Positions 1,209-21,221 of a stretch of 34,229 bases of DNA are shown piece by piece; the first letter of the stretch is position 1; each line of letters begins with the position of its first letter. A program made the position numbers and the translations under genes. The notes below the pieces were generated by a model. The model did not search any database. It saw nothing but the letters and a program-made list of their open reading frames with translations, and was not told where the DNA came from. Source of the stretch: Desulfobacterales bacterium (lineage in GTDB: Bacteria; Desulfobacterota; Desulfobacteria; Desulfobacterales; B30-G6); contig JAOZSO010000001.1 in the NCBI GenBank assembly GCA_029939655.1, positions 1-34,229 on the forward strand. The letters run 5' to 3'.

Positions 1209-2408
1209 TTACCGCATGGCGATGTCAATGTGATAGGATTTCCCGAGAGCGTTTTTAAAATACTCGAGCATGAGAACCGATCTTAATTCATGTTTGTCCA
1301 TCTTTTCTACCTGCTCGTCCTTGAGCAGGTTGGCCGCCCATTTGGAAGACAGTGATTTGTCATTGGCGTATTCTTCGCGGATCGATTTCAGGTAGGACCG
1401 ATTCAATTGTTGCAGTTCTTCCATTTCCATTGTCTTGATTTTGGAAAAATGCCTTGTCATAACAGCAAGATCAGGAAGGGATGGATTCTCGACAATCGAT
1501 TTATAGGTCTGACCAAACCGCTGCAGGCCCTTATATATATGATGTTTCTTTACCATGTTGATTTTATTCCAGCCCGCGTCGAGCCACTTGAATACCCCGC
1601 ATTTAACCTGCTTCTCTTCCCCCTGGGTCTCGTAATAAACGATAATAGAGAAAGAATCATACATGTACGAACGGACCCATCCCAGTCCGGGTTTATTCAA
1701 CCCTTTTTTATCGGAATAAAGATAGGTCCAGTCGGTGTCAGCCCCCAGAACAACCCCTCTTTTACCAACATCCGATACTCCGGTCTGCTTGCTCAGGGAT
1801 ATCATAATGTTATTTCCATTATGTTTCATCAGGATCAGGGTTCGATCCAGATCATACCGAAAATATGTCCCTGTATGAATGTCCGGTGTATTTTCGACAA
1901 ACTCCCGGCCTTTGACAATGACGGGGCCATCCATTCTATCCATATTATCCCACAGTTTCGGTGAGCCCTGGCTTCCAGCACCGTATTCGTGCCAGTAGGA
2001 AAGTCGCACTGATGAGGGATTCATTAAAAATGAGGGCAGTTCTGGATTGTAGGAAAGTTTCAGGATATCAAGCAGTTCTTTATCAAAAATAAGTTCATGA
2101 TAAGCTGAAGTGGCTTCGAATAATCCATCAGTAAAATAGAGACGGCCGTCTTCCTTTGGAGCGGCCACAAAATCGAGAAGCCCATCGATGAGCTCTGTTT
2201 TAAGTACCTCGGCACTGTTGGGGCCGGTCAACATTCTCAAATGCTCAAAAGCCGGATAGAGTGCCTGGGAAATTTTAACATCTTTCAAGCCTGTTTCCGA
2301 CCGAACCCCCTGGGGTACCCAGGTAAAAAGAACGCATAAAGCTATCGTTATCCACAACCATCTCACATTGTTATATCGTTTTCTATCTATATTCTTATTC
2401 CAGTGCAT
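1209..2408 (-). CDS. Hypothetical secreted or membrane-anchored protein, family not recognised
   Basis: Long ORF with a TAA stop. The track start at 2522 is a TTG. The ATG at 2408 gives MHWNKNIDRKRYNNVRWLWITIALCVLFTWVPQGVRS, a basic n-region plus hydrophobic h-region typical of a signal peptide or anchor. I recognise no catalytic motif. Confidence 0.6.
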   Translation of the reverse strand: MHWNKNIDRKRYNNVRWLWITIALCVLFTWVPQGVRSETGLKDVKISQALYPAFEHLRMLTGPNSAEVLKTELIDGLLDFVAAPKEDGRLYFTDGLFEATSAYHELIFDKELLDILKLSYNPELPSFLMNPSSVRLSYWHEYGAGSQGSPKLWDNMDRMDGPVIVKGREFVENTPDIHTGTYFRYDLDRTLILMKHNGNNIMISLSKQTGVSDVGKRGVVLGADTDWTYLYSDKKGLNKPGLGWVRSYMYDSFSIIVYYETQGEEKQVKCGVFKWLDAGWNKINMVKKHHIYKGLQRFGQTYKSIVENPSLPDLAVMTRHFSKIKTMEMEELQQLNRSYLKSIREEYANDKSLSSKWAANLLKDEQVEKMDKHELRSVLMLEYFKNALGKSYHIDIAMR

Positions 2409-2613
2409 ACATCTCCACTTTCGAGTAGGGAATGAAAAAAGCCTCTCTCTCAAGGAGAAGCTCAGTGTTTTTTTTATCAATAAGGTTTCGCAAAAAAATA
2501 AGGCCTTAACAGCTCTTGTCAACTACATTTGCCAACGGTCGTTTAAAGGTGAGCCATTTTGGGTCATGAGAATTGAGCCACATTAATTCGGATGATCGGC
2601 AACCATCCAGATA

Positions 2614-4017
2614 TCACCCTGGCTGAGATGAAATATTGCCTGTTCGATACATATCCAGTATCCGAGGAAGTTGCCCCACCATGTAAAGAGGAAGGGAAAT
2701 TAACCGGTATTTGACCTGTGTGGTTGAATTTGCTTGTCGCAAAGAATGTTCTATATTCTGAATTGAAGGTAGATTAAGGTCGAAACGAACACCCAGTTTT
2801 GCATTTTTATTATAAACAAACTGGAGGAGTGATTTGAGCGTACCGCTTTTGCCCGCTTTCACTTCAACCGGGGTTATCAAATCCGCTCGCGAGATTACAT
2901 AATCAACTTCCGCATTAGCTGATTTTTTTTGTCTCAACCAGTAACACAATTCTGGTGGTTCGCTCAATCCTCGAAAATATAGAAGATGCTGACCAATAAA
3001 CTGTTCTGCCATGGCTCCCTCATTAACTATCTGGCGGTTATCCAGAGCAGATATTGCCAGCCAATCCAATCCGCAAACACGATTCATTAAACCGATATCC
3101 AAAAACAGAGCCTTATAAGTAAGCGCATCTATTTCAGCCTGAAGGGGCAATCCGGAGCAATGGCTGTGAAATACCTGGCTGATTATCCGGGCTTTTGAAA
3201 GAAGTTCAATGGCTGTTCTTAATTCACGTGATGCTTCTTCCCTGGAAATATTACTATACTTGATTTTTTTTCCCACTGCCCTTGGAATAAAATTAAACAC
3301 TTTTTGTAATCGAAGCAGTGCTTTTCGAGAAGCATATTTGGAAAAGTCATCAAGATAAGTCGATATGATAGACCGTTGAACTGGTATGGTATCGGAGAAT
3401 TGACCGCTTCTCAGGTAACCCAAGATAGCTTCCGGCATACCTCCAATCATTAAAAACTCACGTTGTCGATCCAACAGCTTTTTATGAGTGGTCATTGGAA
3501 TACTATCTGCAAAATCGAATTCCGTGATGGTTTTTAATAGCCCCCCATCGATTTCTGCAAGATATTCCTCAAACGTCATCGGACCGAGATGCAGGTAGTT
3601 AATTCTTCCCACCGGCATGGAGAAACTATGGTGTGAAAGCACAAACTCAAGTAAAGAACCGGCTGCTACTACCGGTATCTCAGGCAATTCCTCATAGAAA
3701 TAGCGAAGTGCCTGCAGAGCATATGGGGTAGCTTGAATTTCATCCAGAAACAAAATTGAATCAGGACGTATAATTTTTTTTCCTACTAGGCCTTCGAGTT
3801 CTTTCAGGATTATTCCAGAGTCCAGCGTTTTGAAAATATCATTTAATTCAAGGTGCTGTTCAAGATTTATTTCGTTTAATATCAGGTCATTGCTTTCAGC
3901 AAATTTACGAACCAGGGTTGATTTCCCAACCTGCCGGGCACCCCGGATAACAAGCGGCTTTCTGTATCTGTTTTTCAGCCAGCTTTTCAAGTGACATTCT
4001 GCAGTTCGTTTCATCAT
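2614..4017 (-). CDS. AAA-family ATPase (AAA_14 / DUF4143-type ATP-binding protein)
   Basis: Walker A GARQVGKSTL near the N-terminus and Walker B-like ILFLDEIQ. Length is about 467 aa. The C-terminal VEVKAG segment is typical of the DUF4143 family. Confidence 0.8.
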   Translation of the reverse strand: MMKRTAECHLKSWLKNRYRKPLVIRGARQVGKSTLVRKFAESNDLILNEINLEQHLELNDIFKTLDSGIILKELEGLVGKKIIRPDSILFLDEIQATPYALQALRYFYEELPEIPVVAAGSLLEFVLSHHSFSMPVGRINYLHLGPMTFEEYLAEIDGGLLKTITEFDFADSIPMTTHKKLLDRQREFLMIGGMPEAILGYLRSGQFSDTIPVQRSIISTYLDDFSKYASRKALLRLQKVFNFIPRAVGKKIKYSNISREEASRELRTAIELLSKARIISQVFHSHCSGLPLQAEIDALTYKALFLDIGLMNRVCGLDWLAISALDNRQIVNEGAMAEQFIGQHLLYFRGLSEPPELCYWLRQKKSANAEVDYVISRADLITPVEVKAGKSGTLKSLLQFVYNKNAKLGVRFDLNLPSIQNIEHSLRQANSTTQVKYRLISLPLYMVGQLPRILDMYRTGNISSQPG

Positions 4018-4193: not shown

Positions 4194-5357
4194 TCAGAGA
4201 ATATAATTAGAAATAATCTCCTTCATGATCTCGGTGGTGCCGCCACCGATGGACAGGATCCGATTGTCCCGGAACAGTCTTTCCACGAGATACCCACGCG
4301 TGTATCCATATCCGCCGAATATCTGGACTGCATCATAGGTGACCTTGTCGCTGACACTGCAGGAAAAATTTTTTGCCATGCTGATCTCCTTGATCTGGTT
4401 GTGTCCAGCGTCGATCTTGGCTGCAATCCGGTATGTAAATTCACGGCTCGCCTCCACAAGGGTTGCCATATCCACCAGCTTGTGCCGTGTCACCTGGAAT
4501 CCCTTCAGTTTTCTTCCGAAAGCATCCCTTTCCCCGGTGTAGGCAATGGCCGATTCGAGGGCCAGTTGGGCCGTCATGTTTGCCATGATTGCCAGAGCCA
4601 GTCTTTCACCCTGGAAGTTTTCCATAATGGTGTAAAAGCCTGCGTTTTCTTCCCCCAGTCGATTTTGTACGGGAACGCAACAGTCATCAAAAAATATCTG
4701 GGCTGTGTCCGATGCCCACCAGCCTGTCTTCTTGAATTTTTCGGATACAGAATACCCCGGTGTATTCGATTCGATGACCAGAAGACTGATGCCGTGGGCG
4801 CCGGATTCACCGGTGCGGACAGCACAGGTTATCTGATCCGCACGGTATCCGCTGGTAATGAAAGCCTTACTCCCATTGACCCGGTAGTAATCTCCTTCCC
4901 TGACGGCCGTTGTCTGCAAATTGGCCACATCCGAACCCCCTCCCGGCTCGGTTATGGCGAGTGCCGATATCTTTTCTCCCGCCAGAACCGGACTGACAAA
5001 CCGTTCTTTTTGGGATTCTGTTCCGGCCGACAGGATCGGAGGGATGGCGATATTCAGACTGCCCAGACCCGCCACCAGACCGCCGGATCCTGAGCGCATA
5101 AGTTCCTCGGACACGGCGATGTGAAAAAAAATGTCCCCTGGAATGCCACCGTATGCTTCGGGATATCCCGTTCCGAGAATACCTACTGCCGCTGCCTTTT
5201 GATAGAGCTCCCGTGGAAATTCCCCTGCTTCCTCCCAGTCTTCTATGAAGGGAAGAATCTCTTTGTCCACAAAAGCCTTGACCGATTTCCTCACCATGAC
5301 ATGGGATTTGCCGAAATATTCCTGACACGTTGCTTTGGAGCTGAATTTGTATGTCAT
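4194..5357 (-). CDS. Acyl-CoA dehydrogenase
   Basis: 387 aa. ACAD motifs ALAITEPGGGSDVANLQTTA and YGGYGYTRGYLVERLFRDNRILSIGGGTTEIM (catalytic-Glu region). ATG start, TGA stop. Confidence 0.9.
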   Translation of the reverse strand: MTYKFSSKATCQEYFGKSHVMVRKSVKAFVDKEILPFIEDWEEAGEFPRELYQKAAAVGILGTGYPEAYGGIPGDIFFHIAVSEELMRSGSGGLVAGLGSLNIAIPPILSAGTESQKERFVSPVLAGEKISALAITEPGGGSDVANLQTTAVREGDYYRVNGSKAFITSGYRADQITCAVRTGESGAHGISLLVIESNTPGYSVSEKFKKTGWWASDTAQIFFDDCCVPVQNRLGEENAGFYTIMENFQGERLALAIMANMTAQLALESAIAYTGERDAFGRKLKGFQVTRHKLVDMATLVEASREFTYRIAAKIDAGHNQIKEISMAKNFSCSVSDKVTYDAVQIFGGYGYTRGYLVERLFRDNRILSIGGGTTEIMKEIISNYIL

Positions 5358-5365
5358 AATAGACC

Positions 5366-5606
5366 GTTTTAAGTTTTAGGTTTTAAGTTTTAGGTAAGCC
5401 CATAAGCTCTTGGCTGTTGGGTCTTAGCTGTTGGCAGAATGACAGCCAAGAGCTAACAGCCGGGAACCGCCAGGTTGCCCAATGACAGCCGCAGGCATAA
5501 TGACGCGCACAGCGCTAATGTCGTTCGAAGGACAAGTGACAGCCGAAGGCTAAATGTCGCCCGTAGGGCTAATATCGTCCGAAGGACAAATGGCAATGGG
5601 AATATC
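5366..5606 (+). repeat. Composite intergenic repeat, copy R1 (14-bp tandem duplication, 13-bp inverted repeat, 7 x 18-bp mini-hairpin units)
   Basis: gttttaagttttag occurs twice in tandem (5366-5393). A perfect 13-bp inverted repeat agctcttggctgt / acagccaagagct lies at 5405-5417 and 5442-5454. 18-bp units begin at 5481, 5499, 5517, 5535, 5553, 5571 and 5589 (aatgNcNNNNgNaNNNNn). Confidence 0.85.
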
Positions 5607-7355
5607 TATAATCTTGGCTCTCAGGTATTCTCCCAGCGTTTTGGCCTGGGGATCACTCCTCAGGGATGCGGCCACGCCGTCACCCAACAGCCCTTTGATA
5701 TAGAAATTTAAGGCCAAGAGGTTGGGCAGTTCATATCGCTCGATTTCAAAATCCGCCAGGTCCTTGAGAAGCTTTTTCAGATGTTCCACCGATAAATAAT
5801 CCCTTAAAAAAGCAAACGCTTCCGGTGTTTTTGCCCAGATGCCCAGGTTGGCATTGCCACCCTTGTCTCCGGAACGTGTAGCAAACAGTTTCCCAAAAGA
5901 TGTTGAAATGGTTTCTCCATGTGGAACCGATGGAATCGATCTTGTCTGAAGCGGTATTGCATCGAAGGATTCTCTCTGAGCAAACGCTTTCACAACGATC
6001 TCTTGGCCATCGACAAAAACATGCTGTTGGATATGGTTGTTCGACACCAGTGCCGGCCAGTGCATAATCGCCGGAACTCCTTTGGTCGGGGGGGCTGTGG
6101 CTGTAAATCCGGGGATGTTGGCCAGAGCCAGTTCCACCAGCTTTGAAGATAATAAGGCCACCTTTTTGGGATCCGGATCCATGACCGATATACGCAGATG
6201 CGCAAAAGCCTCTTCATTGGTTTTCGGGTTCTCCTTTTCAGAACGAACAAGCTGTACATCCACCACCGAAAACAGTTTTTTCCCACCCAGACTGTCAAAG
6301 AGGGCTTCAGTCACGATCTGCGCCTTTTTTTCGATGTCGAGGCCGGTCAGAATAATGGTCATGCTGTTACGATATCCCCCCAGGTTGTTGATGCAGACTT
6401 TGGTGGTGCGAGTGGGTGGTTCCCCCTTGACGCCTTGAATCCGAACCCGGTCGACATCTTCCTGGGAAATATCGATGGTGTCAAAACGAGCTGCCACGTC
6501 CGGCGTCAGATATCTGGGTTCCCGGATTTCATACAGCAGCTGAGCGGTTACCGTTCCAACCGAGACAAGCCCGCCGGTGTTGGGATGCTTTGTAATGATC
6601 GAGGATCCATCCTTTTCAAGTTCTGCAATGGGAAACCCTACATTCCTGAAAGAGGGTACCTCCTCAATAAAAGAGTAATTGCCTCCGGTTGCCTGGGCGC
6701 TGCACTCGATCACATGGCCGGCCACCGCCGCACCCGCCAGTGCATCCCAGTCTGTTTTCTCCCATTTGAATTGCCAGGCCGCGGGTCCCATGACCAGTGC
6801 TGCATCGGCAATACGCCCCCCCACGACAATGTCTGCACCGTGATCCAGTGCCTCCACAATCCCCCAGCAACCCAGATAAGCATTGGCTGAAATCGTCTGA
6901 GCCTTGGCATCCTTCAAGGCGATCCCCTTGTCCATGTGGGTAAAAGGTTCTCCTTTGCCCTGAAGATCCTGTAGTCTCTGCATGAGGTTGTCACCCTCGA
7001 CATAGGCAATTTTGGGATGAAGCCCCAGCGTGTCCGCCACCTTCTCAAGTTCTCCGGCAAGCGAGGCTGGATTGAGGCCCCCTGCATTGGCAACAATCCT
7101 GATACGCTTGTCAAGGCATTCCCCCATGACAATTTCCATCTGTTTTAAAAAGGTCGTGACATAACCTGCATCGGGGTCCTTGAACTGTTTGCGAAGAAGG
7201 ATGGCCATGGTCAACTCGGCCAAGTAATCACCTGTCAGAAAATGGATAGGACCGCCCTGGACCATCTCCTGTGCCGCAGAAAATCGGTCACCGAAAAACC
7301 CGCTGCAGTTGGCAATGATTAATTTTTCGTTGTATAAATTGTATGTCTCATTCAT
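5550..7355 (-). CDS. AtuA-like (DUF1446) acyclic-terpene-utilisation family protein with a fused DUF4387-like C-terminal region
   Basis: The N-terminus IANCSGFFGDRFSAAQEMVQGGPIHFLTGDYLAELTMAILL is characteristic of DUF1446/AtuA. 601 aa. The last ~19 codons (..AICPSDDISPTGDI) and the TAG stop lie inside repeat R1. Confidence 0.8.
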   Translation of the reverse strand: MNETYNLYNEKLIIANCSGFFGDRFSAAQEMVQGGPIHFLTGDYLAELTMAILLRKQFKDPDAGYVTTFLKQMEIVMGECLDKRIRIVANAGGLNPASLAGELEKVADTLGLHPKIAYVEGDNLMQRLQDLQGKGEPFTHMDKGIALKDAKAQTISANAYLGCWGIVEALDHGADIVVGGRIADAALVMGPAAWQFKWEKTDWDALAGAAVAGHVIECSAQATGGNYSFIEEVPSFRNVGFPIAELEKDGSSIITKHPNTGGLVSVGTVTAQLLYEIREPRYLTPDVAARFDTIDISQEDVDRVRIQGVKGEPPTRTTKVCINNLGGYRNSMTIILTGLDIEKKAQIVTEALFDSLGGKKLFSVVDVQLVRSEKENPKTNEEAFAHLRISVMDPDPKKVALLSSKLVELALANIPGFTATAPPTKGVPAIMHWPALVSNNHIQQHVFVDGQEIVVKAFAQRESFDAIPLQTRSIPSVPHGETISTSFGKLFATRSGDKGGNANLGIWAKTPEAFAFLRDYLSVEHLKKLLKDLADFEIERYELPNLLALNFYIKGLLGDGVAASLRSDPQAKTLGEYLRAKIIDIPIAICPSDDISPTGDI

Positions 7356-7395
7356 GGGTATGCTCCTATGAAGTCAATTACATTTCTTGTGACAG

Positions 7396-7431
7396 AGATT
7401 CTTGGACGACATTTCGCCTTCGGCTGTCATT
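7396..7431 (-). repeat. Short inverted-orientation copy (R5) of the 18-bp unit array, 2 units
   Basis: The reverse complement of 7396-7431 reads aatgacagccgaaggcga aatgtcgtccaagaatct. The first unit is near-identical to R1 unit 5535-5552. It lies about 40 nt upstream of the AtuA-like start, in sense orientation to that gene. Confidence 0.7.
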
Positions 7432-7560
7432 GTAGATGTAAACCAAAAAGGTTCAAAGATCAAAGGTTGAATAACTTGTCGAGGCTTGATATCTTTCATG
7501 CATCTGGTTCAGATTATTTTTCACAAAGTTGAACCAAACTTAGAATGAAAGGACTTAGCC

Positions 7561-8811
7561 ATGAAAGATGTTGTTATTGCATCGGCATGCAGGACCGCCA
7601 TCGGTGCATTCGGTGGAACCCTGCGGGACACTATCGCCTCAGAAATTGCCAGAGTTACCATGCAGGAAGCCATAGACCGAGCCGGTATCGATCCCGCAAC
7701 TATCGATGATGTGCGCTACGGCTGCTGTTTGGAACCGGTGGACACATTGAATGTCGCCCGAACAGCTGCGTTATTGGCCGGTATACCCGACACTGTTCCC
7801 GCCGTAACCATCAACCGTGTGTGCATTTCGAGCATGGAAGCAACCATCTCCGGGATGGCTATGATTCAGGCCGGCATGGCCGATATCATTCTTGCCGGGG
7901 GTGTCGAACACATGTCCGGGGTCCCGTATGTCGTTCCGGCCGCCCGCTGGGGATGTCGCCTCCAGGATCAGGTCTTCGTGGACGCCTTGATTCGCAGCCT
8001 GCATTGTGGTTCCCATGTGATACCCCACCCTGAAAACGGCCCGGTGAATGCAGAAGAGCCCCCCTTAAGCTATTTTAAAGGGAAGCCTTATATCATGGGC
8101 CATACAGCAGAGTTTGTGGCCCAGCAGTATGGCATCACCCGGGAGGAGATGGATGAAGTGGCCCTGAGAAGTCATAACAATGTAGAGCGGTCAACCCAGG
8201 ATGGTTCGTTCAAGGAAGAAACCGTACCCATGAAAATTCCCCAACGAAAAAAAGATCCCATTCTGTTTGATAAGGATGAACACTTCAGACCGGGGATGAC
8301 CATGGAAAAGCTTCAGAAACTGCCATCCGTCTTTATCCCCAAAACCGGCAAGGTTACGGCAGGAAACTCAAGTGGTATCAATGACGGTTCGGCCGGAATG
8401 GTGATTATGTCTGCCGAAAAAGCCGCAACGCTCAACATCCAACCCCTGGCAAAAATCAAGGCCGTCGGAAAAGGAGCCTGTCATCCCTCGGTCATGGGCA
8501 TGTCGCCTGTTCCGGCCGTTCAGGACCTGATGACACGCAGTGGTCTGAAAATTGAGGATTTCGAACTCGTTGAAGTGAACGAAGCATTTGCCGCCCAGTA
8601 TATCGGTTGCGAAAGAGAGTTGGGATTGAACCGGGATATCACGAATGTCAATGGCTCGGGAATCGGTCTTGGACACCCGGTCGGCGCCACCGGTGCCCGT
8701 ATCATCGTCTCCCTGATCTACGCTATGAAACAGCGAGGAAAAACACTGGGGCTGGCCACCCTCTGTGGCGGTGGGGGCGTGTCCATGGCGTGTGCTATCG
8801 AGATGGTTTAA
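7561..8811 (+). CDS. Thiolase (acetyl-CoA C-acetyl/acyltransferase)
   Basis: Active-site Cys context NRVCISSMEA. C-terminal thiolase signatures NGSGIGLGHPVGATGARI and CGGGGVSMACAIE. SD gaaagga lies upstream of the ATG. Confidence 0.9.
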   Translation: MKDVVIASACRTAIGAFGGTLRDTIASEIARVTMQEAIDRAGIDPATIDDVRYGCCLEPVDTLNVARTAALLAGIPDTVPAVTINRVCISSMEATISGMAMIQAGMADIILAGGVEHMSGVPYVVPAARWGCRLQDQVFVDALIRSLHCGSHVIPHPENGPVNAEEPPLSYFKGKPYIMGHTAEFVAQQYGITREEMDEVALRSHNNVERSTQDGSFKEETVPMKIPQRKKDPILFDKDEHFRPGMTMEKLQKLPSVFIPKTGKVTAGNSSGINDGSAGMVIMSAEKAATLNIQPLAKIKAVGKGACHPSVMGMSPVPAVQDLMTRSGLKIEDFELVEVNEAFAAQYIGCERELGLNRDITNVNGSGIGLGHPVGATGARIIVSLIYAMKQRGKTLGLATLCGGGGVSMACAIEMV

Positions 8812-8830
8812 GACGAGGGTACAAGGATTT

Positions 8831-9017
8831 GAGGGGGAAACCAGGGTTGGAGGGGAAATACATCGGTTTAGGTTTTAGGTATTAGGTATTAGGTTCAACT
8901 AAGAGCAGACAGCTATCAGCAGCAATAAATGACGCCTGAAGGGCAAATATCATCCGGAGGATAAATGACACGCGCAGCGTAAATCTCGCGTGTAACGCAA
9001 ATAAAAGCTATGGCTTG
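8831..9017 (+). repeat. Composite intergenic repeat, copy R2 (G-rich module, TTAGG-type tandem, 5 x 18-bp units)
   Basis: gagggggaaaccagggttggaggggaaa is followed by ggtttaggttttaggtattaggtattaggtt and then agctatcagcagca. 18-bp units begin at 8928, 8946, 8964, 8982 and 9000. It aligns module-for-module with R4. Confidence 0.85.
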
Positions 9018-9066
9018 AAGCGACCCTACATTCTTTAGGCAGCAATAAAAATAAAGGAGCCGTCCC

Positions 9067-11715
9067 ATGAAAAATCTCTTCAAAACAATTTTGCATGATC
9101 GCCATGTCGACCTGGGTGCCCAGATGGTCGAATTCGGGGGCTGGGTCATGCCCATACAGTATCCACAGGGAATTGTCCGGGAACACCTTGCAACAAGACG
9201 GCATGCCGGTCTTTTTGATGTGTCGCATATGGGCCGATTCACTCTCCGTGGTCAGGATGCGCTGCCGTTTTTACAGCATGTCCTTTCCAACAATGCCGTC
9301 GGACTTGAGGAGGGAGAAAGTCAGTATACCTTGATTCCAAATGATCGCGGCGGCGCCATCGACGATGCCTATCTCTATCGCTTTCATGCAGATGAATACC
9401 TGCTGGTGGTCAATGCCGGCAACCGTCTCAAAGACTGGGATCACTTTCAGTCATCTCTGCCTGATTTCAAAAATGTCATCATGGAGGATAAAACCAAAGA
9501 CATATCCATGCTGAGCCTGCAGGGATCGACTTCCAAAGACATACTTCAAAAGATAATGGACACCGGCGCTCTTCCGGAACCCATGCGAAACCATCTCAGC
9601 ATTGCCACCATTCAAGGTAGAAAAGTATTGATCGCGCGCACGGGATACACCGGGGAACCCCTCTGCTTTGAACTGTTCATCGACAGTGCTGACACACCCG
9701 GTATCTGGGATCTGCTGATGGATCAGGGCGCCCACCCTGTTGGACTGGGTGCGCGGGACACTCTCAGACTTGAAGCAGGTCTTCCGCTGTACGGACACGA
9801 ACTGGGAATGGATCCGGACAATAAGGAAATCCCGATCTACGCGTCGCCTCTGTCAAGGTTTGCTGTGAGTCTGTCTCCTTTAAAAAAAGACTTCATCGGT
9901 CGAAATGCCCTTGAAAAGCAATTTGAAGCATTTAAAAAAATTGCTGACCGGGACTATTCCCTCATTCATGACCTCCCTCGCTGCATCATGCCGGTGGCAT
10001 TGAAAAAAAAGAGCGTAGCCCGTGCCGGATACAAGGTTTTTCAGGGTAATCGTCATGTCGGATATGTCACCAGCGGCACCATGATTCCGAGATGGGAGAT
10101 CGAGGGAGAAGGCATCTTCTCGAAATTGACCGAGAATCATGGTCTCAGAGGAATCTGCCTGGCACTGGTAGACAGCACGCTGGTGGAAGGCGACGACATC
10201 GAGATCGAAATCCGGTCAAAACAGGTGCCGGCGGTTATCGTTCCCTTTCATATGCGAAGCGAAGCACCGCCCTTTGCCAGGTCTATCCCCTGGGACAGGA
10301 TTGGGCAGGAAAAGGGACCGTCAGGAAAAGAGGAAATATCCAAAAACGTTCAATCTCTTCTCATAAAATCGATTCGAAATACAGAATGGCGGCAAAAGGA
10401 GTGCATCAACCTCATCCCGTCAGAACAGACCCAGTCCGAACTCATACGCTTGCTCTCCATCATGGACCCCTGCGGACGGTATGCTGAACACAAGCAGGTA
10501 AGTGCATTCAGTGAAGCCGAGGTTTTTTATTACCAGGGAACCGATTTCATTGCCGAAGTCGAGGCAAAACTCGAAACAGAGTTAAAAAAGTTTTTTGGGT
10601 GTCAGCAGGTCGAAACCCGACTGGTCTCGGGCCAGATGGCCAATATGGCCCTGTTCAGCGCACTGGTGGACTATATCAATCGAGCCGACCGGAAAAGTGA
10701 GCAACGACGACTCAGGAAAGTGATGAACAACCATATCATCAAAGGCGGCCATCTGAGTGCACAGCCCATGGGAGCGTTGAGAGACTTTGTGGCCCGGGAC
10801 CCCTTGTCTGAAAAACCGGCTGTGGTAAACTTTCCGGTCCTGCCCGAGAACCCCTATAAAATTGACCTGAGTGCCTGCGAGACTCTCATCCAAAAACATG
10901 AACCGGAACTTATTATCTTTGGCAAAAGTATGGTCCTCCACAAGGAGCCCGTCACAGAAGTTCGTCGAATAATCAATGGTCTGGGAATTGATTCGGTTAT
11001 CATGTACGATATGGCTCACGTTCTGGGCCTGGTAGGCCCCCACTTTCAGGAGCCATTTAAAGAAGGAGCGGATTTCATAACAGGATCTACCCATAAAACC
11101 TTTTTCGGGACACAACGGGGTATCATCGGCACGGATATCACGGATGAAGACCCCCGGTTCGAACTGTGGGAAGCCGTAAAACGCCGGGCATTCCCCGGAA
11201 GTGTCAGCAATCATCACCTGGGAACGATTTTAGGACTCCTGATGGCGACATACGAGATGAACCATTTCAAAGATGAATACCCTAAAAAAGTGCTCGACAA
11301 TGCACGCGTCTTCGCCAAAGCATTGAACGACTGCGGATTGAGCGTGGCCGGCGATCCGGAAATCTCTTTTACAGAAACCCACCAGGTTATACTCAACGTC
11401 GGCTATGCAAAGGGGCCTGCGATCGCCAGGAAACTGGAAGAGAACAACCTCATCGTCAACTACCAGGCAGCCCCGGTGGAAGAAGGTTTTACGGCTTCCG
11501 GATCTCTTCGCATGGGTGTACAGGAAATGACACGTTTTGGCATGGAGGCTACGGATTTCGAAGAACTGGCGCAATTCTTCAAGGATGTTCTGGTGGATAA
11601 CCGGACCGTCAAGGAAGCCGTTATATCGTTTCGAAACCGTTTTTTAGAGATGAAATACTGTTTTACAACGGATCAGGTCGGTGATAAAATCCAGAAATTG
11701 CATGAACTACTATAA
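9067..11715 (+). CDS. gcvT: Fusion protein: glycine-cleavage T protein (aminomethyltransferase) N-terminal half plus serine hydroxymethyltransferase-like PLP domain C-terminal half
   Basis: Residues 1 to about 420 are GcvT-like (HAGLFDVSHMGRF, EYLLVVNAGN, GARDTLRLEAGLPLYGHEL). Residues about 440-882 are SHMT-like (NLIPSEQ, VSGQMANMALF, YDMAHVLGLVG, PLP-lysine motif GSTHKTFFGTQRG). It is a single uninterrupted 882-aa ORF with an AAGGAG SD. Confidence 0.85.
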   Translation: MKNLFKTILHDRHVDLGAQMVEFGGWVMPIQYPQGIVREHLATRRHAGLFDVSHMGRFTLRGQDALPFLQHVLSNNAVGLEEGESQYTLIPNDRGGAIDDAYLYRFHADEYLLVVNAGNRLKDWDHFQSSLPDFKNVIMEDKTKDISMLSLQGSTSKDILQKIMDTGALPEPMRNHLSIATIQGRKVLIARTGYTGEPLCFELFIDSADTPGIWDLLMDQGAHPVGLGARDTLRLEAGLPLYGHELGMDPDNKEIPIYASPLSRFAVSLSPLKKDFIGRNALEKQFEAFKKIADRDYSLIHDLPRCIMPVALKKKSVARAGYKVFQGNRHVGYVTSGTMIPRWEIEGEGIFSKLTENHGLRGICLALVDSTLVEGDDIEIEIRSKQVPAVIVPFHMRSEAPPFARSIPWDRIGQEKGPSGKEEISKNVQSLLIKSIRNTEWRQKECINLIPSEQTQSELIRLLSIMDPCGRYAEHKQVSAFSEAEVFYYQGTDFIAEVEAKLETELKKFFGCQQVETRLVSGQMANMALFSALVDYINRADRKSEQRRLRKVMNNHIIKGGHLSAQPMGALRDFVARDPLSEKPAVVNFPVLPENPYKIDLSACETLIQKHEPELIIFGKSMVLHKEPVTEVRRIINGLGIDSVIMYDMAHVLGLVGPHFQEPFKEGADFITGSTHKTFFGTQRGIIGTDITDEDPRFELWEAVKRRAFPGSVSNHHLGTILGLLMATYEMNHFKDEYPKKVLDNARVFAKALNDCGLSVAGDPEISFTETHQVILNVGYAKGPAIARKLEENNLIVNYQAAPVEEGFTASGSLRMGVQEMTRFGMEATDFEELAQFFKDVLVDNRTVKEAVISFRNRFLEMKYCFTTDQVGDKIQKLHELL

Positions 11716-11720
11716 GAGAC

Positions 11721-11806
11721 AGACTGTAGGCTGTTAGACTGTTAGGCTATTAGCCGCCTAATCGTCTAACAGCCTAATAGCCTAAAAACCTAAACAACCT
11801 AAAACC
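11721..11806 (-). repeat. Composite repeat, copy R3 (nested palindromes plus reversed CCTAAA module)
   Basis: A perfect 13-bp inverted repeat taggctgttagac / gtctaacagccta lies at 11727-11739 and 11764-11776. An internal palindrome ggctattagcc lies at 11745-11755. cctaaaaacctaaacaacctaaaacc (11781-11806) is the reverse complement of the TTTAGG module of R1, R2 and R4. Confidence 0.75.
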
Positions 11807-11826
11807 TTTTTTTATAGGAGACCGTC

Positions 11827-15022: not shown

Positions 15023-15769
15023 ATGGTAAGACAACAGTCGCCCACACCGATACAAACCTGCTGGTGCTTGGATCTCCAGACAATGGATTATTCAGAAGCC
15101 TGGGAATTTCAACAGGCCATCGTCAGGGACAGCATTGGGAAAAAAAATTCCCGGGATATCATTCTGCTTGTAGAACACCCCCCGGTTTTTACACTGGGTC
15201 GCAGGGGGGGAATTGAAAATTTGACAGTCTCCGATGCCTTTCTGAAAACATCAGGCATACAGGTCATACAGGTGGAAAGGGGCGGGGACATCACATATCA
15301 CGGTCCCGGCCAGATGGTGATCTATCCGATCCTGGATCTGGATCGTCAACGACTCGGCATCACGGAACTGGTTTTTATGCTCGAAGAAATCATGATCCGT
15401 GTTTCCGAATCCCTCGGGGTCCAGGCTACGCGAAATCCCAGGAATCGCGGTGTGTGGGTCGGGGACAAAAAACTTGGCAGCGTTGGTCTTGCCGTCCGAA
15501 AGGGAATCAGTTTTCATGGAATAGCTCTGAACGTCAACCTTTCCATGACGCCCTTCAAATGGATTCATCCCTGCGGTCTTATGAATATTTCCATGACTTC
15601 CCTCGCAAGAGAACTTCCCCAAAGACCTTCCATGCAAACAGTGCGGGAACTAACAAAAAAACATTTAGGGGATGTTTTCGGACTACAGTTGGAAGAAGTA
15701 TCTCGGGAAATGTTGGGTGAAAAGATAGGGGGCAAGGGGAAAAACAACGTGTTAAGTTTTAGGTTTTAA
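15023..15769 (+). CDS. lipB: Octanoyltransferase (lipoyl(octanoyl) transferase)
   Basis: RGGDITYHGPGQ and the catalytic Cys context IHPCGL are present. The ATG at 15023 follows the gcvPB stop, whereas the track start at 14903 overlaps gcvPB. The last ~13 codons (GGKGKNNVLSFRF) are encoded by modules of repeat R4. Confidence 0.85.
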   Translation: MVRQQSPTPIQTCWCLDLQTMDYSEAWEFQQAIVRDSIGKKNSRDIILLVEHPPVFTLGRRGGIENLTVSDAFLKTSGIQVIQVERGGDITYHGPGQMVIYPILDLDRQRLGITELVFMLEEIMIRVSESLGVQATRNPRNRGVWVGDKKLGSVGLAVRKGISFHGIALNVNLSMTPFKWIHPCGLMNISMTSLARELPQRPSMQTVRELTKKHLGDVFGLQLEEVSREMLGEKIGGKGKNNVLSFRF

Positions 15770-15921
15770 GTGTTAGGTAAGTCCCAAGCTATCAGCGACA
15801 ATAAATTACGCCCGCAGGGCTAATGACCATAAATAACAGCCGGAGGCGTAATGTCGCGCGCAGCGCAAATGTCGTCCGCAGGACAAATATCGCCCGGAGA
15901 ACAAATGTCACACGAAGTACC
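15728..15921 (+). repeat. Composite intergenic repeat, copy R4 (G-rich module, TTTAGG tandem, ~6 x 18-bp units)
   Basis: gggggcaaggggaaaaacaacgtgttaagttttaggttttaagtgttaggtaag is followed by agctatcagcgaca. 18-bp units begin at 15804, 15832, 15850, 15868, 15886 and 15904, with a 10-bp partial at 15822. Confidence 0.85.
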
Positions 15922-17631: not shown

Positions 17632-19068
17632 TTATATTTCACATTCATTTATAATTGCTTCCATTGCATCTTCTGCTCCTTCTGGTAAAGCCATCGGCTT
17701 GTGGTTCTTGATAAGAAATCTGGCTTTTTCATACGCCCTTTCGATAATGTCTTTCCCACCGATTTTTTTAACCCAGGTATCGCGGTCCATACAATCAAAC
17801 AAATCTCTTTGGGACATGCTTTTCATGTGTTTTAGTGTGTGTTTGCTAGATAAATATTCACCACCAGAGCTTACGCTTTGAATTGTTTCTAAAGCTATTG
17901 TCTCATCAGAAATGTCCATCCCATTTTTTATCCATTTTAAATTCCTTAATTGTTCAGCATCCAGAATCAGCTTTGCAAAATCAAACGTCAGTCCTGATTC
18001 AATAGAACCACATCCATAGATGACATTAGATCCGGCCAGTAATGCTATAGCCGTATTTGTGTTAAATTCATAAGCGGCCTGTACATCCATAAGTTTACTT
18101 CCGCTAACACCTGAACCACACCAACTTGGGATTCCATAATATTGCGCCATTTTTGCAGTCCCAACATTCAAAACACCACATTCTGGGGCAGCGACAGCAG
18201 GATTACCGAGTTTCAAATCCATAATTGTTCCCACACTACCATAAATGAAAGGTGTACTTTTTGAAGTAAGTTGGGTCAAAACTAAAGAACCAAGAAGTTC
18301 TGCATTCTGTACAACCAGGGTTCCAGCGATTGTCGTGGGCGCCGTAGCACCACTCAATGGCATCGTAATTGAACAAACCACAACACCTAATCTTGAGCAT
18401 TCTATAATGACATCACAGCAATTCTTAGAGAGTGTGAGTGGGCTAGTTGGGCAAACGGTGGTGGACACACAAGGACGCTTAATAAAATTCTCCATGCCAC
18501 CGACGCAGGCCGCTGCCATCTCAACAATCTTTATTGAGTTTCTCCCACTAAAAAAACCATGAAAGGCATGCTTACTTGTGTTTGAAACAATTGCTTCGTA
18601 ATTATGCATGGACTGCGTCTCGGCAGGCTTATCCCGTGATCCCATACATTTTTCAATAATTGCAAATTCATCTAACGCATCAGCCAATCGTGTTGCATCC
18701 CCTAAATCTTTCTTTGTACAAGTTCTGTGTTTTAAAGTGTAAAGGTCGTTAGTATAAGAATTTTCACCAAATAGTGTATAGCAGGAACTTCCAGGTTCGA
18801 TAAGATGATCGTGTTTGGGATCCCTTCCATACAAAACAAACCGTTCTGGTGCCCATTGAACACAATCACTAACTACGGATGGAGGAATCTTAACAACAAA
18901 ACAATCCCCCTTTTTAACAATCTCCGATCCAGCACCATGAAAGATCTCTGTTGCCTCATCTGACTCAATTTTTATCCCCGTATTTTCCAATATCTTAATA
19001 GATGCATGATGAATTCTATGAAGTTGTTCATTTGTAATCCCTTCTATTTGATATCCGAGCATATACAT
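17632..19068 (-). CDS. MttB-superfamily (COG5598) methyltransferase, non-pyrrolysine paralogue; probable quaternary-amine:corrinoid methyltransferase
   Basis: 478 aa, uninterrupted. It is colinear with the Pyl-type mttB below (CPTSPL, MPLSGATAPTTIAGTLVVQNAELLG, APECG). A sense Val codon (18106-18108) sits where mttB has TAG. Confidence 0.85.
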   Translation of the reverse strand: MYMLGYQIEGITNEQLHRIHHASIKILENTGIKIESDEATEIFHGAGSEIVKKGDCFVVKIPPSVVSDCVQWAPERFVLYGRDPKHDHLIEPGSSCYTLFGENSYTNDLYTLKHRTCTKKDLGDATRLADALDEFAIIEKCMGSRDKPAETQSMHNYEAIVSNTSKHAFHGFFSGRNSIKIVEMAAACVGGMENFIKRPCVSTTVCPTSPLTLSKNCCDVIIECSRLGVVVCSITMPLSGATAPTTIAGTLVVQNAELLGSLVLTQLTSKSTPFIYGSVGTIMDLKLGNPAVAAPECGVLNVGTAKMAQYYGIPSWCGSGVSGSKLMDVQAAYEFNTNTAIALLAGSNVIYGCGSIESGLTFDFAKLILDAEQLRNLKWIKNGMDISDETIALETIQSVSSGGEYLSSKHTLKHMKSMSQRDLFDCMDRDTWVKKIGGKDIIERAYEKARFLIKNHKPMALPEGAEDAMEAIINECEI

Positions 19069-19847: not shown

Positions 19848-21221
19848 CTAACGTCTGAAACGGTTTAGGGAATTAATTTCAATATCCAACAGTTTTGCAA
19901 TATTATATTTTGCTTCAATGCCTTTTGGAGAACCCATGGTGGAATAGACACTCCCTATCTTATGGTCTTCTCTAACATCACTCATCACAGCAGCATCAGT
20001 AAGCTCATTAACACTAATTCCTAATTTGTCCGCCACATACTTTTTTGCATCTTTTATTTTCATAGCCCGGGTCATTTGCATGCGTGCGACCAGATCTCCG
20101 GAAGTACGCATTCCGCCCATGCCTGCGGCCATTGCATGTGGTATCGCCACCCCTGCGGGGTCTCCGTCGCCAACCTACAACCCGTCCAATCGTGTAATCT
20201 CTAAATGTGCCTTTGAAGCCATGGTCACTGCGTCAATCGGTGGTGTATAACACAATGGTAAACCGCCCACCCCCATTCCTAAATTCGCATGTACAGGAAT
20301 TTCAGCAGCGTCAACACAGGCTTTTGTGAATGTAACCGCACGTGCAATGTTCCAGGGAATAGACTCGGTAGGATCTGTATTTATCGCTGGTCCGAATATG
20401 TCCACACCAGCTTCTTGCGCGACCTTAACCTGTTCGTGGGGATAGAGCCCGGCAAGGCGTACACCGTTGTGAGAAATCTCCCCATGCATTCCCAAGATAA
20501 ATTCCCCGGCCATTCCGATTTCGACACACATACTTGGGTACTTCTCCTTCAGCTCCTGCACCGCTAATAATGTTGCTTTAAAATCAGGATCACCAGAACC
20601 CCCAACCGTATCGAAATTTATCCCATCCGCTCCAGCTTCAAATAGGGAGGATGATACATAAACCATATCACGAACAGAATGCTCGATAGCTTCATCGTAT
20701 GCATCACGCGCTTCTTTGATTTTTCCCTGAGGAATCAGTTCTGCCGGGTTGGTGACAGGCCCATCCGGTTTGGTGTAAAGACCGAGATTTGGCATTGATC
20801 CATAAAAGACAGGAGCCACCATGAGCAATTGTGCTTGCTCCATGAGAGGAACATTTTCTCGAACGATGTGTTTTGCTTGCTTGAAGCTGTAATCGAGGTC
20901 TGATAGCTCAGTGGTGTCAGCTCCGAAACAACGCTCATAGGTCTGAAGCACTTGTAAGCGACCGGTATTTATGCCAAGCCTTCCGATCTTATTGCTTCCA
21001 CCATCATAGGTCATTATAACCTCATACCCTTTTTCAACCCCTGATATGCTACAACTGCATTTGCATATTTCAAACAAATGTTTTCGTTCATCATCAGTGA
21101 GAGGCTGTATCTCTGCCCGATCTGCGGCATCCAGGGTTCCATCTTCAATGTCTTGAATTAGTTCTTTTTCATCTATCTCAACAGAAAAACCATCTCCCAT
21201 GCGGGTTATTACTTTGCTCAT
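19848..21221 (-). CDS. mtbB: Dimethylamine:corrinoid methyltransferase with an in-frame UAG (predicted pyrrolysine) at 20175-20177
   Basis: Track ORFs 20175..21221 and 19848..20150 are in the same frame. Translation across the gap reads [42 protein letters not shown], and the TAG is the only stop. The combined 457 codons are colinear with Methanosarcina MtbB (about 467 aa) along the whole length. AAGGAGG SD precedes the ATG at 21221. Confidence 0.9.

Follow-up and report, generated by a model that had tools for sequence, protein, structure and literature searches.

What are the short tandem arrays of hairpin-capable units that recur between the genes of an uncultured sediment bacterium, and at which level, RNA or DNA, does their structure matter? 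The question is raised by a 34,229-nt stretch of DNA (contig JAOZSO010000001.1 of assembly GCA_029939655.1, Desulfobacterales; 46% G+C), referred to here at its full length as the window, which comes from an uncultured marine-sediment 'Deltaproteobacteria'/Thermodesulfobacteriota genome. It contains four arrays, R1 to R4, all in intergenic DNA and all built of units in which a linker AATNWC is followed by a 4-bp stem closed around a GNA loop. The best explanation that we can offer is that they belong to a lineage-restricted yet multi-phylum family of interspersed intergenic mosaic repeats. We give a probability of about 0.55 to the reading that these repeats are selfish or neutral DNA, comparable to repetitive extragenic palindromic (REP) sequences and bacterial interspersed mosaic elements (BIMEs), with hairpins that would form in single-stranded DNA (ssDNA).

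Each unit opens with the linker AAT(G/T/A/C)(A/T)C, continues with a 3-nt loop between a 5' and a 3' arm of 4 nt each, and closes with one extra base. R1 (5481-5588, plus strand) has six 18-nt units, followed by a degenerate seventh at 5589-5606, with the stems and loops AGCC/GGCA-GCA, GCGC-ACA, GTTC/GGAC-GAA, AGCC/GGCT-GAA, GCCC/GGGC-GTA and GTCC/GGAC-GAA; the array runs antisense to the genes on either side and covers the 3' end of the atuA open reading frame (ORF). R2 (8928-8999, plus strand) has four units (GCCT/GGGC-GAA, ATCC/GGAT-GGA, ACGC/GCGT-GCA and GCGT/ACGC-GTA) and ends about 67 nt before the ATG of the gcvT-SHMT fusion gene at 9067. R3 (15804-15903, plus strand) comprises five hairpin units and one unit of 10 nt, AATGACCATA, that lacks a hairpin and changes the phase of the array. 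Its order is GCCC/GGGC-GCA, the 10-nt unit, AGCC/GGCG-GGA, GCGC-GCA, GTCC/GGAC-GCA and a decayed last unit, GCCC-GGA-GAAC, which supplies the Shine-Dalgarno sequence GGAGAA of lipA, R3 running into the ribosome-binding site of that gene. R4 (7396-7431, minus strand) is a remnant of two units, AATGAC-AGCC-GAA-GGCG-A and the decayed AATGTC-GTCC-AAG-AATC; it lies between divergent genes, at 41-76 nt upstream of atuA. The initial annotation, made from the letters of the window alone, had described these four arrays, seven stem and loop combinations within them, the sense orientation of three arrays upstream of start codons (gcvT, lipA, atuA) and the antisense orientation of R1, and all of this was recovered.

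Among the 17 hairpin units of the window, ten have perfect 4/4 Watson-Crick stems and two are decayed; two more contain one T.G pair (GTTC..GGAC at 5523 and GCCT..GGGC at 8934), and three contain one other mismatch (AGCC..GGCA once, AGCC..GGCG twice). The earlier figure of about 14 paired units in 18 was thus slightly generous compared with our ten perfect units plus two with T.G in 17, and it remains a fair description. Tandem Repeats Finder assigned R1 a period of 54, equal to three units, and R3 a period of 18. Perfect 4-bp/3-nt C-GNA-G hairpins occur ten times in the 34-kb window, eight of them inside arrays, and a two-unit pattern gave five matches, compared with 0.00 expected from 100 dinucleotide shuffles.

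Covariation was measured on units of the wider family described below. To avoid circularity, only units that were set by linkers 18 nt apart and that lay outside the matches of the search pattern were used. Stems were perfect in 60 of the 70 linker-defined, pattern-independent units. The 58 distinct ones were aligned under the structure ......((((...)))). to give an alignment (A1) with 232 stem cells, of which 95.3% were paired, compared with 65.4 +/- 2.3% in shuffled controls. Two-sided changes were found in 61 cells (16.6 +/- 3.1 when shuffled) and at all four stem pairs, and the covariation score of 0.733 (0.221 when shuffled) was matched by none of 500 shuffles. When the 3' partner was slid by one to three columns, the score fell to 0.10 or below. 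The covariation of the stems, inferred in the initial annotation from the units of the window, is therefore real and strong, and complementarity well exceeds that of shuffled controls, the comparison named there as a possible refutation.

The loop and closing pair follow narrow rules. The loops of the 70 pattern-independent units begin with G in 52 cases and with A in 17, they end with A in 67, and their middle base varies freely (A 36, C 25, T 7, G 2); over 444 listed units the loops are GAA (161), GCA (122), GTA (35) and GGA (16). The closing pair of the 58 distinct units is C-G in 50, T-A in six and G-C in none, while the two inner pairs of A1 flip freely (CG 34 vs GC 14, and CG 33 vs GC 21). 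The A/T-rich 6-nt linkers of the family are AATGAC, AATTAC, AATGTC or AATATC, and they are spaced at 18 nt in 307 counted intervals. Other unit lengths also occur: 10-nt units are AATGAC followed by CATA or AATA and lack a hairpin, units of 14-15 nt carry GCGAAGC or AGCGAAGCG, 16-nt units carry GGCGAAGCC, and 19-nt units carry the tetraloops GATA, GAAA and GTAA. Stem length ranges from 2 to 4 bp, with the core C-GNA-G extending from GCGAAGC up to GCGCGAAGCGC, the latter being among the commoner cores of the 18-mers.

The minimal unit GCGAAGC is identical to the 'extraordinarily stable mini-hairpin' of Hirao. According to the review by Hirao and colleagues, GNA is the only one of 64 triloop types that gives the DNA mini-hairpin; stems GC-GC or CC-GG are required, CG-CG or GG-CC fail, and GNNA tetraloop forms (GCGNNAGC) are permitted. 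The same review reports that the RNA counterparts are much weaker, with a melting temperature (Tm) of 39 C compared with 76.5 C for DNA, and that the DNA mini-hairpin is a poor binder of single-stranded DNA-binding protein (SSB). For d(GNA) loops, a C:G closing pair has been published to be worth about 2-3 kcal/mol over G:C. In sequence, the loop, closing pair and minimal core of the units match these DNA mini-hairpin rules and not the rules of RNA helices.

In the initial annotation, the two units that pair through a T.G were taken as favouring an RNA structure read from the plus strand. This argument fails on the larger sample. A wobble of the G.U type occupies only one of the 232 stem cells of A1, and in a larger set of units with a single mismatch G.T, with 12 cases, does not outnumber A.C, with 14; the most frequent mismatch there is the terminal A.G of the recurrent unit AGCC..GGCG. 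Orthologous units of the window and L129 are set apart by single point changes. The window's GTTC..GGAC corresponds to GTCC..GGAC in the related locus L129, and its GCCT..GGGC to GCCC..GGGC in L017. Since the relatives have C where the window has T, the two T.G pairs are most simply explained as recent C>T mutations.

To determine the distribution of the family, one genome per species from GTDB was scanned with the pattern AATNNCNNNCGNAGNNNNAATNNCNNNCGNAGNNNNAAT, which returned at least 110 stretches. Arrays were kept if they had at least two different perfect stems, after discarding obvious coding repeats. Among the matches listed, to which the counts in this and the following paragraph refer, at least 84 arrays were found in at least 69 loci. 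Hosts include at least nine metagenome-assembled genomes (MAGs) of Desulfobacterota, several of them long-read, one of Calditrichia with seven loci, and at least ten of Bacteroidota (Bacteroidales, Rikenellaceae, Lentimicrobiaceae, Paludibacter and Saprospiraceae). With the strict seed, a single MAG held 4-11 array-bearing 8-kb blocks. At least 17 different perfect stem types occur in the family, the commonest being GCGC, GCCC/GGGC, GTCC/GGAC, GCAC/GTGC, GGCC, ATCC/GGAT, GTGC/GCAC and AGCC/GGCT.

By a crude ORF caller, 83 of the 84 arrays are intergenic. They occupy gaps of every type: 52 lie between co-directional genes, 13 between convergent and eight between divergent genes. Clustering of the array-adjoining ORFs revealed no recurrent neighbours beyond syntenic genes of acyl-CoA metabolism. 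A BLAST search of a consensus array against 72,556 plasmid and 50,697 phage records gave no match, a weak test because the variable stems defeat a word-based search. A pattern scan of viral contigs returned ten matches, nine of them coding-type identical 18-nt repeats, and gave no evidence of carriage by phages. The tenth, L010 (IMGVR_UViG_3300046616_000600, about 3400-3560), is a 25-nt tandem repeat AATGACC-AATGACA-AGCGCAGCGAC, composed of AATGAC heptamers and a GCGCAGC mini-hairpin and resembling the short-unit form of the family.

In Desulfobacterota, the hairpin units form the 3' part of a polar mosaic, in the order G-rich block (GGGTTGGAGGG...), GTTTTAG-like heptamers, leader, units, and the mosaic frequently sets in right at, or includes, the stop codon of the preceding gene. 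Two kinds of leader are found: type 1, of the form AGCTATC/AGCAACA and ending in ...CAATA, and type 2, which has a 7-bp hairpin GACAACC-NNNN-GGTTGTC. A strict pattern for the former, AGC....AGC..CAATA, is present in 21 of 66 Desulfobacterota arrays, and others have a visible ...CAATA ending. Of the first units after a type 1 leader, 71% are GCGC or GCCC, while the first four units were never common to two of the arrays compared. Many loci have inverted short units (GTCATT + TGCTGCGC...) on the other side of the leader, so that the whole mosaic is roughly palindromic. Higher-order repeats are seen at L083 (2885-3150), L117 (4193-4500) and L023 (about 1700-1860), where three-unit blocks of 53-63 nt recur three to five times; the near identity of these blocks indicates recent block duplication.

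The window mosaics conform to this anatomy. R1 is preceded by a heptamer block (GTTTTAA/GTTTTAG x4, 5366-5395, plus strand; Tandem Repeats Finder period 7/14) at the 5' edge of its mosaic, a module also found 5' of arrays in many Desulfobacterota loci. A type 2 leader follows at 5405-5480 (plus strand), with an imperfect inverted repeat of 13-20 nt (5405-5431 / 5442-5461) and a hairpin with the 7-bp stem GGGAACC-GCCA-GGTTGCC at 5463-5480 (plus strand); similar leaders occur in L043, L047, L050, L102, L129 and L205. The 5' modules of R2 (8826-8927, plus strand) are a G-rich block at about 8826-8860 (GGGTTGGAGGGG...), GGTTTTA/GGTATTA heptamers at 8864-8895 and the type 1 leader AGCTATCAGCAGCAATA at 8911-8927 (plus strand). 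Those of R3 (15727-15803, plus strand) are a G-rich block at 15727-15745 (GGGGGCAAGGGG...), GTTAAGT/TTTAGGT heptamers at 15751-15778 and the type 1 leader AGCTATCAGCGACAATA at 15787-15803 (plus strand). The two G-rich blocks lie directly after the thiolase and lipB-like genes; the stop codon TAA of the latter (15767-15769) is inside the heptamer block, and its final residues, LSFRF, are repeat-encoded. Elsewhere, GGGTTGA/GGAGGGT-like repeats precede arrays, and their C-rich reverse complements are found on the far side of some arrays. A related module without hairpin units, at 11721-11807 between gcvT and gcvH (no strand assigned), consists of octamers and heptamers arranged as an inverted repeat with 27-30-nt arms (AGGCTGTT/AGACTGTT vs CCTAAAA-type), including an octamer palindrome at 11727-11792.

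Turnover of the arrays was followed at orthologous sites through a protein scan of metagenomes for GcvT-SHMT, which returned 80 loci at 57-98% identity. Arrays were confined to the closest relatives, at 90% identity or more, and the roughly 60 loci at 57-67% identity had no array in up to 22 kb each. The closest relative (L127, 98%) is the same as the window in its 46 nt of sequence upstream of gcvT, which stop short of the array. At 96% identity (L205), the same position holds a type 2 leader and two other units, and at 92% (L129 and L131) heptamers and inverted short units without 18-mers. In L128, L133, L132 and L138 (67-92%), an intact 147-aa Lrp/AsnC regulator gene abuts gcvT, and in L130 (90%) only a 3' remnant of that gene is left, after unrelated AT-rich sequence; none of these five loci has an array directly upstream of gcvT. 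In L128 an array lies instead upstream of the Lrp/AsnC gene, right after the thiolase stop. The orthologous array of L017 shares part of the content of R2 (GCCC-GCA-GGGC, then ATCC-GGA-GGAT), the site of R4 has four intact units in L205, and the arrays of L129 at the R1 and R3 sites differ from those of the window in leaders, unit numbers and unit order.

The arrays also coincide with breakpoints. The window retains only the last ~36 nt of the Lrp/AsnC regulator gene (9001-9038, plus strand; encoding ...KSYGLKRPYIL before the stop; Pfam AsnC_trans_reg and HTH_AsnC-type), joined to the last unit of R2, and the BLAST alignment of relatives to the window begins at 9001. The fusion of this remnant to the last unit places R2 at a deletion junction. 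With the Lrp/AsnC gene deleted in the window lineage, the glycine-cleavage cluster is left without its adjacent regulator. A second junction lies at R1. The native end of atuA (...VPKTIL or ...IPREIL before the stop, 590 aa) is present in L129, L069 and L004, while in the window (minus strand, 5550-5606) the antisense of R1 replaces the last four codons and the stop to give 601 aa, the last 15 codons of the ORF being read from the 3' part of R1. The flanks of L004 are 99.8% identical to the window, yet it has different DNA beyond atuA; at the other arrays it has an N-run and a contig end.

At R3 the consequence is one of annotation. Public gene calls start lipA at an ATG at 15851, inside R3 (306 aa). 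The real start is the ATG at 15905 (288 aa), because the N-terminus MSH... is conserved in L129 and L105 and is preceded by the Shine-Dalgarno sequence GGAGAA; the 288-aa product has LIAS_N and Radical_SAM domains. AATGAC and AATGTC linkers seed in-frame ATGs every 18 nt.

These observations bear on the proposal of the initial annotation that the arrays are gene-specific translation-modulating leaders, CsrA-like titrating RNAs or, for R1, a stand-alone small RNA (sRNA). Three arrays do lie in sense orientation upstream of start codons, and some 3' arms create AGGA or AGGG, which had been likened to Shine-Dalgarno or CsrA sites. These motifs are an automatic by-product, because the GNA loop meets a 3' arm that starts with G, and GGA loops are found in only 16 of 444 units. 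The family is dispersed over all gap types without a link to a gene class, arrays are not conserved at orthologous genes, the gcvT array being replaced, reshaped or absent at 90-96% identity, the wobble argument fails, and R1, which overlaps the 3' end of atuA, is a product of rearrangement. The comparative data contradict this proposal, and we consider it very improbable. A promoter array, considered by eye, was set aside as well: between the ATGACA and ATAATG-like hexamers the distance is 9 or 27 nt instead of 17.

Could the arrays be an artefact of assembly, or a translated hexapeptide repeat? Contigs assembled from short reads are broken or contain N-runs at arrays, automated gene calls of lipA and atuA reach into them, and part of the pattern matches are true coding 18-nt repeats (Ser-Asp repeats, in lactobacilli and Acinetobacter). 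Such coding repeats have identical units without stem covariation, whereas 83 of the 84 listed arrays lie outside long ORFs and arrays contain in-frame stops; with these stops, the intergenic location and the lack of periodic identity, a coding repeat was rejected. As to assembly, the window locus is contained in ENA, JGI, NCBI and Logan assemblies at 99.7-99.8% identity. R1 to R4 are identical in four independent assemblies (L001-L003 and L005), with 0 mismatches in the repeat regions, and arrays are also found in long-read MAGs. Either explanation is almost certainly wrong. Among the same 99.7%-identical strain contigs, the only length differences are two indels, 7 nt at about 5447 in the R1 leader and 8 nt at about 11770 in the octamer block. 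Both indels are slippage events of unit size, and the hairpin arrays themselves are unchanged on this time scale. Short-read MAG contigs end or carry N-runs exactly at arrays in L004 (GCA_029935735.1; 3547-3646 and both ends), L019, L037 and L060; the arrays break assemblies and may be under-represented in MAGs.

Multiple copies, intergenic location everywhere, mosaic structure, fast turnover, breakpoints and compensatory changes place the arrays with repeats of the REP/BIME/REPIN type (REPINs being REP doublets that form hairpins) rather than with a conserved riboregulator. In the mechanism that we favour, the GNA-bearing strand would fold while single-stranded, during replication, during transcription or in an intermediate of transposition or recombination. 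The folded hairpins may promote slippage, template switching and recombination between copies, through which arrays would grow, shrink and reshuffle; the same dynamics could homogenise stems and cause deletions beside arrays. Arrays would colonise new loci, and spread or persist as selfish or neutral DNA without a host function, as REP, BIME and REPIN elements do. Complementarity would be kept because only hairpin-forming units propagate, a form of element-level selection, or, alternatively or jointly, because quasi-palindrome template switching copies one arm onto the other, and not by selection for regulation of the adjacent gene. Edge deletions, altered C-termini and false upstream ATGs in neighbouring genes appear to be by-products. 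Selfish or neutral DNA is, on this assessment, the most likely answer for the family.

Several observations weigh against this reading. Array sites persist across species (R1 and R3 in L129, lipA in L105, atuA in L069, gcvT in L017), and arrays could therefore be useful there. Between co-directional genes, 38 of the listed arrays are sense and 14 antisense, a ratio in which orthologous sites of related MAGs are counted repeatedly and which depends on the crude ORF caller. The GC skew of the 8-kb flanks tracks gene orientation and not array strand, replication and transcription being inseparable by this measure. Since the skew follows gene orientation, the sense bias looks tied to transcription rather than to replication, and an RNA-level or transcription-coupled role would be the simpler account of it. 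Nearest-neighbour folding of R1 to R3 on both strands, with RNA and with DNA parameters, gave z values of -1 to -2.5 without a difference between strands; as the GNA bonus is absent from the parameter sets, this folding is uninformative. No transposase, target-site duplication or clean empty/filled pair was found at the loci examined, and a phmmer search with approximate IS200 and IS608 TnpA queries, a weak test, gave no match among 6,668 ORFs in 1.2 Mb of the loci compared. Finally, the conserved linker suggests recognition by some factor.

The orientation bias is most readily accommodated by a generic RNA-level element, in which hairpins co-transcribed with operons would tune mRNA decay, processing or translation, or bind an abundant RNA-binding protein. 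Some REP sequences do affect mRNA decay, processing or translation. In addition to the sense bias, and to a GC skew without sign of replication-linked orientation, the start codon next to a sense array usually lies 2-112 nt beyond its end, ribosome-binding sites are fused with the last units at lipA (window, L129 and L105) and at gcvT (L017), and the heptamer repeats of other bacteria likewise point to start codons. An RNA structure is harder to reconcile with the lack of G.U enrichment and with a loop and closing pair that follow the DNA mini-hairpin, the tetraloops GATA, GTAA and GGTA occurring beside GAAA without restriction to GNRA. The predicted RNA hairpins are marginally stable, at -0.9 to -4.6 kcal/mol per unit (-0.6 to -3.2 for DNA by ViennaRNA, from which the GNA bonus is absent). 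The 14 antisense and 13 convergent-gap arrays are preserved equally well: perfect hairpins were counted in 98 of 111 sense and 30 of 37 antisense seed units, and in 27 of 32 sense and 12 of 14 antisense non-seed units. Orthologous genes of close relatives have no arrays or different ones. An RNA-level element of this kind is the main rival reading, possible but, on balance, doubtful.

The linker invites a further reading, namely that AATGAC-type linkers at 18-bp spacing bind a nucleoid-associated or topology protein on duplex DNA, the hairpin being secondary. BIMEs offer a parallel in their binding of IHF and gyrase. No other part of the unit is as well conserved as the linker, with A1, A2, T3 and C6 invariant in the unit alignment, an invariance partly due to the way units are defined; the spacing is strict, and the location intergenic. 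Binding to duplex DNA would not, however, keep the spacer complementary or maintain a GNA loop and its closing C-G. The hairpin core is retained as unit length changes (10, 14-16 and 19 nt), and 18 bp does not equal the helical repeat. We regard duplex binding as improbable.

The match to the DNA mini-hairpin also admits a functional variant of the favoured reading. Tandem mini-hairpin arrays might be a strand-specific ssDNA signal common to Desulfobacterota, Calditrichia and Bacteroidota, which we hold to be unlikely although not far-fetched. Possible roles are SSB-excluding sites of priming or pausing, recombination sites, and transcription-related structures on the non-template strand; the arrays could also be the substrate of an ssDNA-specific enzyme, of the HUH type or other, that reads the AATGAC/AATTAC linker together with the hairpin and builds or moves the arrays. 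If true, bacterial mobile or structural DNA elements would gain a new class in this family, and the Hirao motif its first chromosomal use on a genome-wide scale. There is, likewise, a real if minor chance that a new ssDNA-based mechanism is hidden in the family.

Should the DNA-level reading hold, the family would be the first case found of massive, tandem use of the GCGNAGC mini-hairpin in bacterial chromosomes, and it would allow ssDNA structure (SSB exclusion, slippage, template switching) to be studied in vivo in a natural setting. Textbook-quality covariation is possible in a selfish or DNA-level repeat, and covariation alone is thus not evidence of a functional RNA. In practical terms, the arrays cause annotation errors, with a false N-terminus for lipA (306 vs 288 aa) and a false C-terminus for atuA (601 vs 590 aa), and they mark gene loss and rearrangement, as with the Lrp/AsnC regulator upstream of the glycine-cleavage genes. 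The patchy occurrence in three phyla, together with heptamers similar to the ones in cyanobacteria and large sulfur bacteria, is relevant to the spread of repeats between distant lineages.

The genes around the arrays are, in order, an acyl-CoA dehydrogenase gene and atuA (both minus strand), a thiolase gene and the gcvT-SHMT fusion (both plus strand), then gcvH, gcvPA, gcvPB, the lipB-like gene and lipA (plus strand), followed by a block of pyrrolysine-type methyltransferase genes. In this block, Rfam PYLIS_2 and PYLIS_3 matches at 18009-18107, 20078-20177 and 21622-21721 (minus strand) adjoin split MTTB and Dimeth_Pyl ORFs, which are pyrrolysine-containing trimethylamine and dimethylamine methyltransferase genes with an in-frame UAG; a gene for a B12-binding corrinoid protein accompanies them. 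At the other end of the window, an ORF of 399-437 aa without a Pfam match (1209-2522, minus strand) adjoins an AAA_14/DUF4143 ATPase gene and has no evident link to the repeats.

The family is apparently undescribed, as the initial annotation had supposed. Rfam 15 gave no array match at the gathering threshold in the window, at E<=10 over 5300-9100 or in 18 array loci, the E<=10 search returning only noise (miRNA and snoRNA models); full-text searches of the accessible literature, by unit sequence and by topic (intergenic, tandem or hairpin repeats in these taxa), yielded no description of the family. Among known systems, the sponge sRNAs CsrB and RsmZ share many short hairpins in series; unlike the arrays, they have GGA loops, and each is encoded by one conserved gene that has a promoter and terminator of its own. 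The loops here are GAA, GCA and GTA, and the arrays occur in many copies and in either orientation, without conservation at individual loci.

The small dispersed repeats (SDRs) of cyanobacteria are reportedly hairpin-capable mini-elements of 21-27 nt inserted in heptamer arrays, with compensatory changes and an unknown means of mobilisation. The other strand of the short tandemly repeated repetitive (STRR) sequence STRR2 is (AATGACC)n, with the same hexamer as the array linker. Like STRRs, the family includes intergenic tandem heptamers, and its units without a hairpin consist of AATGAC and 4 more nt. In contrast to the 18-nt tandem arrays with variable stems found here, SDRs are described as single, dispersed insertions; in the portion of the literature that was accessible, they are reported only from Nostocaceae. 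TAACTGA heptamer repeats, described in Beggiatoaceae, Cyanobacteria and Bacteroidetes (MacGregor 2015), with an orientation that was interpreted as post-transcriptional in Beggiatoaceae and a proposed binding of an abundant RNA-binding protein, resemble the family in their patchiness across phyla, their intergenic and mostly 'forward' position shortly upstream of starts, their strain indels in unit increments and the absence of a known mechanism. They are simple 7-nt repeats without hairpins, whereas heptamers here are one module of a hairpin mosaic.

The mini-hairpins d(GCGAAGC), d(GCGNAGC) and d(GCGNNAGC) of Hirao have the identical core, GNA loop and C-G closing pair, as well as GNNA tetraloop variants. 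Known natural examples in the Hirao review are single hairpins at the origins of ssDNA phages, at ssiA of RSF1010 and at phage N4 promoters; those predicted here form dispersed chromosomal tandem arrays.

The initial annotation had left room for a known family of REP sequences, BIMEs or MITEs (miniature transposable elements with inverted repeats). Of MITE traits, no defined ends, target-site duplications or parent insertion sequence (IS) were found at the loci examined, and some mosaics are roughly palindromic (through inverted short units or through G-rich vs C-rich blocks). Literal identity with REP elements does not apply: the hairpin is 7-11 nt with a stem of at most 4 bp, compared with 20-40 nt in REP; units are head-to-tail 18-nt direct repeats, with inverted arms only at some loci, compared with inverted doublets; the linker AATGAC/AATTAC takes the place of a GTAG-type 5' tetranucleotide; and loop and closing pair are restricted to the DNA mini-hairpin motif. 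No REP-associated tyrosine transposase (RAYT) was found nearby with approximate queries in the loci compared, and the hosts are Desulfobacterota, Calditrichia and Bacteroidota. In behaviour, the arrays are nevertheless of the REP/BIME class. REPINs have been argued to be selfish, with hairpins 'in ssDNA or mRNA', common compensatory changes and tandem clusters. As with the REP, BIME and REPIN elements of Enterobacteria and Pseudomonas, the units described here are short, extragenic, multi-copy and palindromic, with compensatory stem changes; they occur in clusters, tandem arrays and mosaics with other motifs, form lineage-specific families and are associated with rearrangement, a set of features shared with elements that are regarded as selfish DNA with occasional secondary functions.

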